The position numbers and the translations under genes are program-made. 14,168 bases of DNA from Promethearchaeota archaeon (GTDB lineage Archaea; Asgardarchaeota; Thorarchaeia; Thorarchaeales; Thorarchaeaceae): positions 1-14,168 of the forward strand of contig WJMJ01000112.1 of the NCBI GenBank assembly GCA_014728035.1, written 5' to 3'. The notes under the pieces are model-generated. The model did no database searches. It saw nothing but the letters and a program-made list of their open reading frames with translations, and was not told where the DNA came from. Shown here in pieces: positions 1 through 14,021 of the stretch (the first letter of the stretch is position 1; the number at the start of each line of letters is the position of its first letter).

Positions 1-618
1 ACGAGCGGCCTCTGCATTAATACCAAGGAGAGCATAATCCTCATCCCAGACATTCTCAAGTTGGGCACGAATGTCAATAGGAGTTAGTCGAACAGAACCA
101 ACTTCGCCGACCTCATAGATAGAGGTTGGTTTCTCAAGTTTAAGTTTGAGTTGTTCGGATCCACAATGTGGGCAGCTCTTGGCTTTGGCACCGCGTTTCA
201 GAATCTCCTTTGATAGAGCAGCAGTCTTTTGGCCGATCTCAGGATATCGTTTGAACAGACGATTGTAATAATCAATCTCTTCATCAGTAAGTAAGATGCG
301 ACTACATTCTCGGCAGATAGCACGAAGCACTTTGTGAATGACTTTAGCATATCCTGCGTGCATGATAGGTCGAGCAAGCTCGATGTGGCCAAAATGGCCA
401 GGGCAGTTACCTACACGGTTACCACAGGTTCTGCACCGTTGACCGGGGTCAATGACACCGAGACGTTGGTCCATAATACCGGACTCGATGGGATAACCAT
501 CTTCATTGTAAGTATCTGCCACAACGATTTGGGCAACGGACATCTTACGAATATCTTCGGGACTTAGAAGCCCGAATTCAATGGAGTCGATTTTTTTGGT
601 AGGAATACCTGTTAGCAT
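1..618 (-). CDS. rpoA1: DNA-directed RNA polymerase subunit A' (Rpo1N; RpoA if unsplit), 5' part, runs off the window edge
   Basis: Absent from the ORF track because there is no stop in the window. Manual translation from ATG at 618: MLTGIPTKKIDSIEFGLLSPEDIRKMSVAQIVVADTYNEDGYPIESGIMDQRLGVIDPGQRCRTCGNRVGNCPGHFGHIELARP. It has the FGLLSPE strand, D.RLG, the Zn-binding CxxC...CPGHFGHIEL motif and later CRECS/CPHCG. It lies downstream of rpoB. Confidence 0.97.
   Translation of the reverse strand, partial: MLTGIPTKKIDSIEFGLLSPEDIRKMSVAQIVVADTYNEDGYPIESGIMDQRLGVIDPGQRCRTCGNRVGNCPGHFGHIELARPIMHAGYAKVIHKVLRAICRECSRILLTDEEIDYYNRLFKRYPEIGQKTAALSKEILKRGAKAKSCPHCGSEQLKLKLEKPTSIYEVGEVGSVRLTPIDIRAQLENVWDEDYALLGINAEAAR
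559..618 (-). repeat. Copy A of a 60-nt direct repeat (first 20 codons of full-length rpoA1)
   Basis: 49/60 nt identical to 1052..1111, with identical translation MLTGIPTKKIDSIEFGLLSP. The 20-nt perfect core GGTATTCCTACCAAAAAAAT is at 609..590 and 1102..1083. Confidence 0.95.
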
Positions 619-690
619 TAAATCACCTTCTGGATAGGGACGAATAAGTATTGGCAATATAGAGGACATATATATGGTCTATCCCCTATT
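619..690 (-). promoter_or_regulatory. Putative dedicated promoter and Shine-Dalgarno for rpoA1
   Basis: GAAGGTGA (630..623) lies 4 nt before the ATG. A palindromic TATA-like CATATATATG at 667..676 is flanked by an imperfect inverted repeat, ATAGAGGA/TCCCCTAT. Confidence 0.55.
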
Positions 691-859
691 CAGATGACAA
701 TTTAGAATCACTATGAAGTTGTTATAATCTTTTAGTTATGAAGGTCAACTATTGTAGAAAATCGAATGTGATGATATTTTAGACTTGAAAATGAACTAGT
801 TTATTTGCTGATTCATACAGATTTGGATACTAAAATCTAATCAATCTATAGCATCCATT

Positions 860-1111
860 TCACTGCCTCTCTAGTGAAGGAATGTCTAAATATTTGTCTA
901 TTAACTGTGACTCGACATAGGGGAGGGACTTGAATCCAAAAAACGCACCTACGACATTCTGTGAGAGCCGGATAGGTTCCTTCCCAATAAGGTATTGATG
1001 AGCAAGATAGATACAGATACTGGCGACCACAGCAGGTTCAAAGTCATTATCAGGGCTCAATAGTCCAAATTCAATGGAATCAATTTTTTTGGTAGGAATA
1101 CCAGTAAGCAT
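860..1111 (-). CDS. 83-aa chimeric ORF: RpoA' N-terminal 20 aa fused to an unrelated, possibly TFB/cyclin-like helical segment (functional small protein or displaced rpoA1 5' remnant)
   Basis: ATG at 1111..1109 overlaps the rpoB TAA stop (TAATG) and is preceded by GGAGATGA. The frame is open to the stop at 862..860. The track's start at 1141 lies inside rpoB, so 1111 is the more plausible start. Confidence 0.6.
   Translation of the reverse strand: MLTGIPTKKIDSIEFGLLSPDNDFEPAVVASICIYLAHQYLIGKEPIRLSQNVVGAFFGFKSLPYVESQLIDKYLDIPSLERQ
1052..1111 (-). repeat. Copy B of the 60-nt rpoA1 5' repeat (coupled to rpoB)
   Basis: Same peptide as 559..618. Ten of 20 codons differ, all synonymously. Similarity ends at codons 21-22 (GAA GAT vs GAT AAT). 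Confidence 0.95.
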
Positions 1112-4100
1112 TAGATCATCTCCTTGAGGCGCAGTCTGCACGCAAGACCAAGCGACATCATCTCTTGAATAAGAAGTTTGAAAGCATAAGACACAACTAC
1201 GCGGTTAATCTTAGAACCAGTTCCGCAGATGGGGCAATAATACTGGTCTTTATTTCGGTCATAGACACCAATCAAGCCACATTCTTCACATACAAGCATA
1301 GTACTCTTGTCAGACTCATCAAGAAGACGGCCTTTGAGAAGAATTGCAGCTCCATGTCCAATGAGAACATCACGTTCCATCTCACCAAATCGCAGACCAC
1401 CTTCTCTCGCACGACCCTCTGTGGGTTGACGAGTAAGAATCTGGACAGGACCCCGAGCACGGGCATGTATCTTGTCAGCAACCATGTGATGGAGTTTCTG
1501 CATGAATACGACACCAATGAAGATGTCGGAGATGAGTTTCTCACCTGTAACACCAGAATACATGGTCTCACGACCGTTATGCTGGAGTCCTGCATTGATG
1601 AGCATATCGAATAATTCCCGTTCACTTACACCACAGAAGGGGGTACCATCTTGTTGCCTTCCAACCATACAACCAGCTTTACCAGCAACCATCTCGAGAA
1701 TCTGTCCAATAGTCATTCTGCTTGGAATAGCATGAGGATTGATAATGAGATCAGGAACAACACCGTCCTCTGTAAAGGGTACGTCTACCTGTGGGACAAT
1801 ATAGCCAATAACACCTTTCTGTCCATGGCGAGATGCGTACTTGTCACCAAGTTCAGGAATTCTAAGGTCTCGAACCTTCACCTTGACCAATCTATTCCCA
1901 TCAATAGTTTCGGTTAAAATAACGCGGTCGACGACACCGGATTCACCATGACGTACAGCCACCGAGGTCTCACGACGATTTGGAGATTGAATGTCAAATT
2001 CTGAATATTCTTCCAAGAATCTTGGAGGAGAAGTTCGTCCGATAAGGACATCGCCACCTTGAACCTCTACTTCAGTTTCTATAATACCATCTTCACCAAG
2101 GTTTCTGTAAGATTCCTGTGCGCGATATCCACGAACGCTTCTATCTGGAATCTGGAAACGGTCTTCTTGACCACCCGGATATTTTCGTTCTTCACTCTCA
2201 TATACACGGCAGAAAGTACTACGACCTAGTCCTCGCTCAATGGATGCCTTGTTCATAATCAAAGCGTCTTCCATATTGTAGCCTTCAAAGGAAAGGATTG
2301 CTACAACGAAGTTTTGCCCAGCAGGGCGTTTTTCATATCCAATGGAGTCCATAGGCCGAGTCTTTACAATAGGAATTTGTGGATAGTGGAAGAAATGTGC
2401 ACGTGTGTCTGCACGGAAGTTGAAGTTTGAAGCAGGGACACCAACTGATTGTTTGGCCATTCCCGCCATGTATACGTTACGAGGTGACTGATTACGTTCA
2501 GGAAACGGAATGAGTGCTGCTGAGATGCCAAGGATAGTAGCAGGAACAATCTCAAGATGAGTGGTATTTGGTCCAATCTCATCTGGCATCATCGCAATCA
2601 AAGTATTCTCTTCCTCTTCAGCATCAAGGAACTCGATAATACCATTTCTAACAAGGTCACTAAATTTCCATTCTCCCTCGCTAATCATTCTGAGATGCTC
2701 ATCAGTAAGACGACTCTTTCCATTTTCTACAACTATTACTGGACGACGGACCCTACCAGCATCACAATTAACCTCTACCTCGTGAGTGTTCTCATAATAT
2801 GCTATGTTGGTTTCATGGTTGATTTCACCAGCTCGTCGCTTCTGTCGAATGGTCTTAGCCAAAACTAAGGGAGCTGGATGCACCCCTACCAAACGTCCAT
2901 TTAGAAATACGTCAGCCCATTTAGAGCTTCTTTTTCCACTTCTCTCTTCAATAGGTTCAACGTCCGCCTTGTAAAGTGCACGTTCAACAAAATCCTCATC
3001 TGTGCCTACTGAAATATATGCCATCATTGCAATATTCTTGACAAGGCCACAATTTGGTCCTTCAGGCGTTTCATTGGGACAAATTTTTCCCCAATGTGTT
3101 GAATGTAAGTCTCGAGCCTCAAAGTGTGGCTGAGAACGTGAGAGAGGTGAAACAACTCTCCGAAGATGTGACAGGGAGGAGATATAATTGGTGCGGTCAA
3201 GAAGCTGAGACACCCCAGCTTTGCCACCTACCCAATTACCAGTAGCAAGAGCATGTTTTAATCTTTGAGTGATAACGTCAGCTCTAACAGCAGTACGAAT
3301 GTTTGGTTTTCTACCTCGTACAGCAGTCCGTTCTAGTTGGTATTTGATATCGCGAGTAAGTGAATAGAGTGCAACTCTAAACAGGGACATTAGCAAATCA
3401 CCTGAGAGTTTCAGACGTTTATTGGCATAGTGGTCTTTGTCATCAGGTCGCCGTTTATTCAAAACCAAATCGAGAAGGCGTTCAACCATTTGACCTAGAT
3501 AGTAAGCTTTCTTGAGACGATGCTCTTCTTCTGTGCCAATATGTGGTAAAAGGTAACGGTCAAGAACCTTTTCAGCACGAGCTAGACGATATTCTTTGGT
3601 TTGCCCTACTGCAACCCGTTTTCCGATGAAATCCAATGCATTCTCACGGGTGGAACCAGCTTCTTCATCGCGTGCTGCATTTATGGGTGCAGACTGTTCA
3701 ATTGTAACAATAAGCTCGTTCCGTATCTCCTCATCGTCAGATATCACATCTGCGATGTCACGATCAGATTCAAGTCCTAATGCTTTCATTAAAATAGCAA
3801 GAGGAATCTTTCCAGGGACAGATGGGAAGGACACACGGAGCTCACCGGTGCGTTTTCTTTCGATGGTAACCGGAGCTCTAAAACCACGGGAAGTTGAGAA
3901 TACCTTTGCGATATGAGTATAGCTCGAACTCTTACTAGCCTCTTCTATGAGTATTCTGTTTGGAGCCAAGTCTTCTTGAGTAACAAGTACTCTCTCAGAA
4001 CCATTAATGATGAAGTAACCACCAGGGTCTTGTGGATCTTCCCCATGTGCAATAAGCTCTTCTTCATTCATTCCGTGAAGAAGACACTTCTCACTTCGCA

Positions 4101-4488
4101 ACATAATAGGAAGATCGCCTATGTAAATCCGAAGCGTTTCCATTCTGGTGGTGACAGAACCTTCCTTTCGAACAGGGGTACACTCGAGATATAATTTCGC
4201 TGCGTATGTAAGATTACGAATTCTCGCTTCGTTTGGAAAGAGAGGATGTTCGCTACCATCCGCTTCTCGCACGGATGGAGATTCAAGTGTTAATTCGCCC
4301 ATATCCACATAGTAACCTTCTACTTTTGGATTTAGACGGCCAATACTATCTACTACTCTTTGAAGCTCTTCACTGATGAAGCGATTAAATGAGTCGAGGT
4401 GTTGTCCAACTAACCCCTTCTCTCTAAAGTAAGCTTCTATAATCGGCCAGAGCTTCTGTTTGTCTTCGGTTCCCAAGCTTGTCACCAC
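1111..4488 (-). CDS. rpoB: DNA-directed RNA polymerase subunit B (Rpo2), unsplit, 1125 aa
   Basis: Motifs GGYFIINGSERVL, ETPEGPNCGLVKN, GYNMEDA, GDKYASRHGQKG, HMVADKIHAR, GGLRFGEMERD and a C-terminal CxxC...CxxC zinc site. GTG start. Confidence 0.99.
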   Translation of the reverse strand: MVTSLGTEDKQKLWPIIEAYFREKGLVGQHLDSFNRFISEELQRVVDSIGRLNPKVEGYYVDMGELTLESPSVREADGSEHPLFPNEARIRNLTYAAKLYLECTPVRKEGSVTTRMETLRIYIGDLPIMLRSEKCLLHGMNEEELIAHGEDPQDPGGYFIINGSERVLVTQEDLAPNRILIEEASKSSSYTHIAKVFSTSRGFRAPVTIERKRTGELRVSFPSVPGKIPLAILMKALGLESDRDIADVISDDEEIRNELIVTIEQSAPINAARDEEAGSTRENALDFIGKRVAVGQTKEYRLARAEKVLDRYLLPHIGTEEEHRLKKAYYLGQMVERLLDLVLNKRRPDDKDHYANKRLKLSGDLLMSLFRVALYSLTRDIKYQLERTAVRGRKPNIRTAVRADVITQRLKHALATGNWVGGKAGVSQLLDRTNYISSLSHLRRVVSPLSRSQPHFEARDLHSTHWGKICPNETPEGPNCGLVKNIAMMAYISVGTDEDFVERALYKADVEPIEERSGKRSSKWADVFLNGRLVGVHPAPLVLAKTIRQKRRAGEINHETNIAYYENTHEVEVNCDAGRVRRPVIVVENGKSRLTDEHLRMISEGEWKFSDLVRNGIIEFLDAEEEENTLIAMMPDEIGPNTTHLEIVPATILGISAALIPFPERNQSPRNVYMAGMAKQSVGVPASNFNFRADTRAHFFHYPQIPIVKTRPMDSIGYEKRPAGQNFVVAILSFEGYNMEDALIMNKASIERGLGRSTFCRVYESEERKYPGGQEDRFQIPDRSVRGYRAQESYRNLGEDGIIETEVEVQGGDVLIGRTSPPRFLEEYSEFDIQSPNRRETSVAVRHGESGVVDRVILTETIDGNRLVKVKVRDLRIPELGDKYASRHGQKGVIGYIVPQVDVPFTEDGVVPDLIINPHAIPSRMTIGQILEMVAGKAGCMVGRQQDGTPFCGVSERELFDMLINAGLQHNGRETMYSGVTGEKLISDIFIGVVFMQKLHHMVADKIHARARGPVQILTRQPTEGRAREGGLRFGEMERDVLIGHGAAILLKGRLLDESDKSTMLVCEECGLIGVYDRNKDQYYCPICGTGSKINRVVVSYAFKLLIQEMMSLGLACRLRLKEMI

Positions 4489-12844: not shown

Positions 12845-13031
12845 TTTTATTCCCTATAGTCTATTCAGATTTGGAACTAAAGAACACCAGTAATATCAGT
12901 GTAATACCTAATACTCGTCCTCTGTTCTAACATAGTGTACCTCCGAAAGAATGAATACTATTCACTCGATTGCGCCGAGCATTCACCTGAAATGTGAAAT
13001 TGCATCCTTTGAGCAGTAGGTGTTAGTTCAA

Positions 13032-14021
13032 ATGGATGAGGAAGGTTTCAAGACATATTTAATGGACCGTAAAGTCTCAGAAGAGACAATTTCTGAATCA
13101 ATTGAATTGGTAAAACGATTCGAGTCATTTCTACAGGAGAACTTTGGAGAGGTTGTGTCTGTTGATACTGCAACTGAAGATGAAGCGAACAGATTTGTGA
13201 GGGAACTGATTCAAGAAGGTACGAATTCGCTAAAGAATTTAATAGCCATAGCAAGATACGGCTACTTCTCAAAGAATCAACAGCTTTACATCAGTGTGCT
13301 GGAACTCATAGATGGTTCTGATGTCGGAGAAGTGCTTTTTGAAAAGATAGGTGAAGCAGTCGGCGACTCACAGAGAACTGAAATATTTGGCGACATAGAG
13401 ATTCCACCAATAGGAACTCCATCAAAGGACAAACCAAAATTTACTAAGGCTATCATGGAACAGATGGAGTCCAACCTTGATGAAACAACCTGTCAGAAGA
13501 TATTATCCAGTGTAGCACATGGTATCCCCAAAGAATACTACGAGAAAGAACGAGCAAAGTTTCTTGAAGCAGGTAACGTTGATGAATATCTCAAAAAGAA
13601 ACGAGAACAGAACATATCAACATTGGAGAAACACAGAGAAGAAGGAACACTGTTCTTTAATCAAGAGATCACAGATGAAGTTCTAAAATACGTCAAAAGT
13701 AGACCAGATGTGCTTACTGGTGAACGACGTGGTGACGTTATCTATCATACCAAAATTCCATTCCTCACTCACAAGTATCTCAAAGAGAAAGACCCCAAGA
13801 TGAAACGTTACTATGCATGTCACTGCGCCTGGGCAAGAGAGACAATACTACAAGAGGACATGGAGGTCTCACCAACTTTCTGCTACTGCAGTGGAGGTTT
13901 CTCTAAACAGCCATGGGAAGTAGCATTTGATCAGGACCTTGAAGTACGAATGATCAAGTCTGCACTCAAGGGAGATATGGAGTGCGCTTTTGAGATTCCC
14001 ATCCCAGAGAAGTATAGATGA
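13032..14021 (+). CDS. Hypothetical protein with a Cys-rich C-terminal domain (DUF6144/V4R-like, putative metal or ligand binding)
   Basis: YYACHCAWAR...PTFCYCSGGF...KSALKGDMECAFEI resembles a V4R-type C-terminus. ATG at 13032 (MDEEGF) is preferred; an in-frame GTG lies at 13020. Confidence 0.75.
   Translation: MDEEGFKTYLMDRKVSEETISESIELVKRFESFLQENFGEVVSVDTATEDEANRFVRELIQEGTNSLKNLIAIARYGYFSKNQQLYISVLELIDGSDVGEVLFEKIGEAVGDSQRTEIFGDIEIPPIGTPSKDKPKFTKAIMEQMESNLDETTCQKILSSVAHGIPKEYYEKERAKFLEAGNVDEYLKKKREQNISTLEKHREEGTLFFNQEITDEVLKYVKSRPDVLTGERRGDVIYHTKIPFLTHKYLKEKDPKMKRYYACHCAWARETILQEDMEVSPTFCYCSGGFSKQPWEVAFDQDLEVRMIKSALKGDMECAFEIPIPEKYR

Follow-up and report, generated by a model that had tools for sequence, protein, structure and literature searches.

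The boundary between rpoB and rpoA' is among the most conserved gene boundaries in archaea. Some integrative elements, such as those that target tRNA genes, duplicate or replace the end of the target gene and thereby preserve an intact copy of it. Repair of the MMBIR/FoSTeS type produces templated insertions flanked by duplications of the breakpoint.

The rpoB/rpoA' locus of one thorarchaeal genome resembles each of these in part. As with the integrative elements, a direct repeat of a gene end flanks foreign DNA and the essential gene is intact. However, the target is the start of a protein-coding gene in an RNA polymerase operon, the two repeats (copies A and B) are 78 nt long and 81% identical, the foreign DNA amounts to only 415 nt and the locus is without an integrase. 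As in MMBIR/FoSTeS repair, the breakpoint is duplicated and a captured piece of a gene lies between the copies, and the junction of copy A with the insert falls in a patch of chance similarity (RpoA' 'GLLSPED' against 'L.P.NDF' of the family to which the captured gene belongs). Unlike in such events, no donor locus with matching DNA was found in the assembly. The junction now holds a hybrid ORF of 83 codons (P0007). The explanation that we favor, at slightly better than an even chance, is that this ORF is the scar of an insertion-duplication that regenerated rpoA' in one Thorarchaeota lineage. Most likely it is a tolerated by-product rather than a designed regulator.

Anatomy of the junction and its relatives

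The window, that is, the whole stretch of DNA analyzed, is an entire contig of 14,168 nt (C82) from the metagenome-assembled genome (MAG) G000, which has a size of 4.33 Mb in 173 contigs and is 97.9% complete with 8.5% contamination. The features of the junction are collected in Table 1. The locus order is rpoB, rpoA' codons 1-20, the 415-nt insert (635-1050), and then a relic of the rpoB end followed by rpoA' codons 1-20 and the rest of that gene. With the 78-nt duplication of the junction, the insertion totals about 493 nt.

Table 1. Coordinates of the features at the rpoB/rpoA' junction in the window.
Feature	Position	Strand	Description
rpoB, RNA polymerase subunit B	1111..4488	-	1125 aa, unsplit, ends ...RLRLKEMI
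Chimeric 83-codon ORF (P0007)	860..1111	-	rpoA' codons 1-20 joined to TFB/cyclin-like codons 21-83; stop 862-860
RpoA'-derived codons 1-20 of P0007	1052..1111	-	original rpoB-coupled rpoA' start
TFB/cyclin-like part of P0007	863..1051	-	3'-terminal 63 codons of a gene paralogous to the 235-aa TBP-linked module
Direct repeat copy A	1050..1127	.	end of rpoB (16-17 nt) with the initial ~61 nt of rpoA'
Direct repeat copy B	557..634	.	working rpoA' start codon 618-616, AGGTGAT Shine-Dalgarno-like motif, decayed rpoB 3'-end relic
Non-coding part of the insert, possibly 3' flank of the donor gene	635..859	-	225 nt, AT-rich
Real rpoA' (Rpb1 domain 1)	1..618	-	cut by the contig end; continues on G000:C25

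The first-pass annotation had described a chimeric ORF translationally coupled to rpoB. That ORF exists as claimed, and its residues 24-59 read exactly as quoted. It encodes 83 aa from the ATG that overlaps the rpoB TAA stop (ATCTAATG), or 93 aa from a GTG upstream at 1141. Its first 20 residues (MLTGIPTKKIDSIEFGLLSP) recur unchanged as residues 18-37 of the real RpoA' ORF (669..1). The conserved rpoA' start is the ATG at 618; the in-frame ATG at 669, upstream of it, shows no conservation. The downstream rpoA' ORF matches PF04997 (Rpb1 domain 1) at 2.4e-42, and the hybrid ORF, with only 20 RpoA' residues, has no PF04997 match. Since the AGGTGAT motif is kept in copy B and a TATA-like ATATATAT lies in the spacer at about 664-677, some 50 nt upstream of the rpoA' ATG, initiation signals of rpoA' itself may be present in the insert and copy B.

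Two further elements of the window were recorded. Positions 762-826 on the + strand, antisense within the inserted spacer, hold an element with a weak likeness to box C/D sRNAs (GTGATGA ... CTGA, closed by a GAA/UUC terminal stem). The Rfam families SNORD41 and SNORD52 match it at E 0.4-0.6, far under their gathering scores, and its internal C'/D' boxes are poor. An ORF at 13020-14021 on the + strand, close to the opposite contig end, carries a phage-integrase N-terminal SAM-like domain (E 1.6e-5), and no link was seen between this ORF and the insertion.

The closest named relatives are Candidatus Thorarchaeota (Asgard) MAGs, of which isolate BC (SHMX01000002.1) is nearest; this entry appears to be the same locus as that of the sister genome G001 (L046). 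In G001 the same ATCTAATG stop/start overlap is followed by a full-length rpoA' without the insert. In 27 of 29 other Thorarchaeota loci rpoB directly abuts rpoA', the rpoB stop lying 2-15 nt from the rpoA' match, and the C-terminus of rpoB is identical across 27 loci. All seven relatives that were read by translation have an rpoB ending in ...RLRLKEMI* with rpoA' beginning immediately, and a DNA search of 40 relatives found the two flanks adjacent and the insert absent. In two Thorarchaeota contigs, L072 and L074, no rpoB precedes rpoA' in the upstream sequence that the contig provides, 352 nt and 1200 nt respectively. A spacer shared with these two was looked for and was absent.

Comparison with G001 revealed that the locus is a mosaic. 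Synonymous codon differences amount to 45% in rpoB, 22% in rpoA' codons 1-210 and about 51% in codons 211-600, whereas a ratio near 1 is seen in other genome pairs. Nucleotides 116-360 and 451-600 of rpoA' are about 4-5% diverged from G001, with identical runs of 53 and 71 nt, against 17-20% in flanking rpoA' and rpoB. These tracts look like recombination from a G001-like lineage beside the insertion and, judged from the sequence, DNA exchange has happened at this locus. Divergence from G001 is ordinary over the initial 115 nt of rpoA', a stretch that takes in copy B. Copy B therefore probably did not arrive with the recombination tract, and the tract does not itself explain how copies A and B differ.

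The possibility was considered that the arrangement is an artefact of assembly or binning, namely a chimeric contig built from co-occurring related Thorarchaeota populations. The contamination and the number of contigs of the MAG would be compatible with this, as would the sharp variation of synonymous divergence from G001 along the locus. Furthermore, the contig ends inside rpoA' at an exact 141-nt k-mer overlap with contig C25, which is an assembly-graph branch. However, exact identity between copies A and B extends over 19 nt at most, too short for a mis-join of contigs, neither insert junction matches other DNA in the assembly, and the genome has only one rpoA' 5' end. When C82 and C25 were joined and a 31-nt intron-like insert was removed, they encoded an RpoA' 97.5% identical to that of G001 over 606 residues. 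The ordinary divergence of the first 115 nt of rpoA' also speaks against an artefact, which we regard as highly improbable.

The 31-nt insert just mentioned breaks the frame of rpoA' on contig C25 (L126, nt 322-352), after ...SLIVE and before DLWELLQYH.... The predicted fold of this region is very stable (-32.7 kcal/mol, z -5.9), and a structure with a 3-4-3 bulge-helix-bulge lies 3.2 kcal/mol above the minimum free energy. Cleavage at that motif would excise exactly 31 nt and give back the protein of G001. The helix between the exons depends on synonymous codons that are absent in G001. A 30-nt insert with in-frame stop codons follows 'DEDGYPI(E/D)' in the rpoA' of L072 (nt ~537-566) and L074 (nt ~1336-1365). 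It has an internal CUGG/CCAG hairpin and exon-exon pairing, and in L074 the fold contains a 4-bp helix between two 3-nt bulges. These inserts probably belong to the same class of mini-intron at a different site.

A TBP-linked gene family as the source of the insert

When the hybrid ORF was searched against its own genome with tblastn, two further matches to ORF residues 22-91 were found, on contigs C113 and C44. By BLASTP, it is 38% (E 3e-18) and 44% (E 5e-16) identical to the C-terminal ~65 aa of the corresponding proteins, P0004 and P0005. P0004 (C113) has 235 aa, and its start overlaps the stop of a gene for a divergent TBP (P0006; PF00352, 1.8e-33). P0005 (C44) has 427 aa and comprises TBP and the module in one reading frame. 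The hybrid ORF ends about five residues before the end of P0004. This match and the position of its end indicate that a third member of the family supplied the insert with its final 63 codons, its stop and its 3' flank. Moreover, 23 family-invariant residues are retained in the hybrid. Its non-RpoA part is no chance look-alike.

The family was found only in this genome. Searches of 5.8e9 clustered proteins and, with phmmer, of 1.84e9 representatives returned no member of the module family beyond the three copies in this genome and no homologue of P0007 itself outside contig C82. A comparison of contigs by exact protein likewise gave no homologue beyond the three copies, and the family is absent from 80 other genomes of the taxonomic family. 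A scan of JGI metagenome contigs with a degenerate DNA motif gave three chance matches, none with tblastn support.

The loci amount to a putative accessory set of initiation factors specific to this genome. On C113 (L016, 10835-12874), the divergent TBP gene is preceded by an ORF for a 265-aa Cys-pair-ribbon protein, which has a weak Zn_Ribbon_TF/TFIIB Zn-ribbon match (E 0.035), and is followed by the ribbon-less 235-aa module; stops and starts overlap. This locus adjoins STAND-NTPase/TPR and AbiTii genes in a variable region. On C44 (L017, 15751-17034), TBP and the module are fused. A third copy of TBP (G000:C60:5176-5610) is degraded by stop codons. This pseudogene locus was searched for the 5' remainder of the donor gene, and no match was found.

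The insert was also weighed as the remnant of a larger mobile or integrative element with TBP and TFB-like genes, which integrated at the 5' end of rpoA', brought a replacement for the gene end and later lost most of its length. Each of the three family copies is found within 1 kb of a contig end, and one of them is in the variable region described above. The restriction of the family to this genome among those of its taxonomic family and the degraded TBP copy on C60 would fit such an element, and the low identity of the repeats is as if the element had carried its own version of the target end. However, an integrase was not found, nor were repeats of an inverted or exact att-like kind or a further copy of the insert DNA, and PHROGs searches with P0007 and the module gave no matches. 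In addition, both repeat copies have the derived residues T3 and P6, where G001 has S3 and T6, indicating that the copies split within this lineage. An origin from such an element is a slim prospect. A transposable element or MITE was rejected: there are no inverted repeats in window positions 1-1400, terminal or otherwise, and no second DNA copy of the insert, including its non-coding spacer, in the genome.

Relation of the module to TFB and cyclins

The first-pass annotation had seen, by eye, a TFB/cyclin pattern in the non-RpoA part of the hybrid. On the fragment alone this pattern found no confirmation. No match to PF00382 at E<=10 was obtained for P0007, its non-RpoA part (residues 21-83), P0004, the module part of P0005, or halves of these. 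The only Pfam match of P0007 alone was to CycT2-like_C, at E 0.07-0.13 over 17 residues. What sustained the reading was the homology to the two larger TFB/cyclin-like proteins of the genome. The resemblance of P0007 to TFB and cyclins is real by descent and weakly supported at the level of the fold.

Sequence searches of P0007 and the module against the PDB gave nothing significant, the profile search matching only cyclin-L1 at E 4.4. When the module alignment was compared by hhalign with the six canonical TFBs of the same genome, the score was 27.1 (E 0.0048, probability 7.4%). Column shuffles scored 14.3 +/- 2.4 with a maximum of 24.8, so that none of 150 reached the real score, and the reversed profile scored 13.1. 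The aligned part begins where repeat 1 ends ('RP.K..LEEI' over 'PRxLDEIA' of TFB) and reaches helix 3 of repeat 2 ('LAGACVYLAH' over 'LAAAAIYIAS'), with the module in register with helix 3 of the second TFB cyclin repeat, 'DPxGLAAAAIYIAS'. The nearest neighbors of the module by the Atlas language model are all Cyclin_N (0.90-0.92), and its Atlas structure neighbors include TFIIB-repeat clusters (TM 0.36-0.43). The AF2 model of P0004, from an alignment of three sequences, is all-helical, with 11 helices, though at a poor pLDDT of 42.7. The evidence for a TFB-core/cyclin fold of the module is consistent in direction but weak; we rate the fold as likely to belong to the TFIIB/cyclin clan.

The module resembles the archaeal TFB/TFIIB core (PF00382) in that its paralogues are predicted to be all-helical, measure about 235 aa and are linked or fused to TBP. 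It also has '..IYECIVRY..RPKKKDLEEI' and '..CVYLAHRY..LTQNIL' in the order in which TFB has 'AAIYAACRI..PRxLDEIA' and 'AAIYIAS..RTQREIA'. It differs from TFB/TFIIB in lacking not only a PF00382 match but also a zinc ribbon and a B-reader: helices begin at the very start of the 235 aa, and CxxC pairs are absent. The likeness to the cyclin box (Cyclin_N PF00134, CycT2-like_C PF21797) consists of the nearest clusters, all Cyclin_N, and of weak matches on 'ICIYLAHQY'; every score, however, is under the family thresholds. The linkage to TBP would place the module in the TFIIB branch of the clan, not among the cell-cycle cyclins. This partnership is one of gene linkage and fusion only, and it concerns the paralogues P0004 and P0005 and not the fragment in P0007.

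From the TFB alignment, the fragment corresponds to helices 3'-5' of a putative second cyclin repeat and the C-terminal tail. In TFB, helices 3'-5' include the helix-turn-helix that reads the BRE. Since the fragment starts at helix 3', without helices 1' and 2', the domain is incomplete; in contrast to TFB, P0007 keeps only this part of repeat 2, joined to 20 residues of RpoA'. The Atlas model of P0007 has a pLDDT of 0.45, and an Atlas search with P0007 itself gave no usable feature match. Of the two readings that the first-pass annotation had offered, the alternative one, an in-frame remnant of a TFB-like gene, is favored, because the paralogues adjoin or are fused with TBP and align with helix 3 of TFB repeat 2.

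Origin and possible maintenance of the hybrid ORF

The anatomy of the locus, its uniqueness and the homology of the fragment are established; the course of the insertion, translation of the hybrid and its lack of function are what we infer from them. In the insertion-duplication that we favor, a 415-nt piece of DNA would have been joined in frame after rpoA' codon 20. The piece would comprise the end of a gene from the TBP-linked TFB-core/cyclin-like family specific to this genome, namely its final 63 codons with the stop, and about 225 nt of 3' flanking sequence. Simultaneously, a 78-nt stretch across the junction, with 16-17 nt from rpoB and 20 rpoA' codons, would have been duplicated downstream of the insert, so that an intact rpoA' with its own ribosome-binding site survived. 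The simplest mechanism would be a microhomology-type illegitimate join or a template switch that captured a gene fragment, and survivors would be limited to events that regenerated the essential rpoA'. The 83-aa hybrid is probably made, as the rpoB stop is still overlapped by the former rpoA' start. The protein would consist of the 20-residue N-terminal strand of RpoA' followed by three helices of a five-helix repeat.

The remnant of rpoB that precedes copy B, 16 nt long, carries four changes, at positions where copy A equals G001. This suggests that the arrangement is not very recent, although two of the four improve the Shine-Dalgarno match.

Over rpoA' codons 1-20, copies A and B differ by 11 synonymous and no non-synonymous changes, in 10 of the 20 codons. 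With G001 as the outgroup, five of these fall on the copy-A branch and six on that of copy B. The chance that five random substitutions in copy A would all be synonymous is 0.001-0.0025, which hints at a small protein that is maintained. According to this proposal, the RpoA' strand would dock on the C-terminal clamp element of RpoB and translation would be coupled to that of RpoB. It is supported, furthermore, by the fusion being in frame and open, with a stop codon near the paralogue ends and the 23 family-invariant residues kept, by the persistence of the rpoB-coupled start and by the age that the changed rpoB remnant suggests.

However, the synonymous-only pattern is also expected if the copies diverged as working rpoA' starts in two lineages and later recombined. 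The sequence 'KKIDSIEFGLLSP' is invariant across Thorarchaeota and its synonymous sites are saturated, so two separately diverged working starts would give the same A/B pattern. The mosaic of the 5' part of rpoA' relative to G001 also tells against maintenance, as do the occurrence of the ORF in one MAG and the small part of the RpoA'-RpoB interface that 20 residues represent. A maintained protein of this kind is unlikely.

Docking of P0007 with RpoB residues 1006-1125 lends the maintained protein weak support. The predicted complex scored 0.33 against 0.01 for the best control. It passed a mark that 58 of 80 solved complexes also pass, as do 2 of 110 mismatches, although only 7 of the 80 pass it at scores of 0.60 or less. 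The runs agreed in at least 41% of contacts, with a partner pLDDT of at least 43. Because P0007 shares residues 1-20 with RpoA', the predictor may have passed it by drawing on solved RNA polymerase structures that it had learned. The predicted contact is physically plausible, no more.

The first-pass annotation had given most weight to an RNA polymerase-tethered regulator, decoy or assembly factor. Against this idea stands that the fragment has only three of the five helices of a cyclin repeat and is predicted to fold poorly, which also counts against maintenance in general. That a maintained P0007 carries a remnant of a TFB-like helix-turn-helix and acts as an RpoB placeholder or assembly factor, decoy or regulator seems to us an unlikely reading. 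In its fullest form, the proposal is that a repair scar within the core operon for RNA polymerase gave rise, in an Asgard archaeon, to a new microprotein gene. Its product would be made in step with RpoB, would place an RpoA' strand on the RpoB clamp element, would carry a BRE-reading, TFB-like helix-turn-helix, and would have been under purifying selection since about the divergence of the genus. We consider this quite unlikely.

By the scar interpretation, a conserved rpoB/rpoA' boundary has here been broken and then repaired by duplication, which uncoupled the translation of rpoA' from that of rpoB. If P0007 is made and binds RNA polymerase, it would be a rare case of a polymerase-associated protein newly arisen from a scar. 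Otherwise it is a well-documented by-product which automated annotation will list as a gene. The insert also calls attention to a previously undescribed family confined to this genome, in which a TBP paralogue is paired, and once fused, with a TFB/cyclin-like module that lacks a zinc ribbon. This family bears on how Asgard archaea diversify their transcription-initiation factors.
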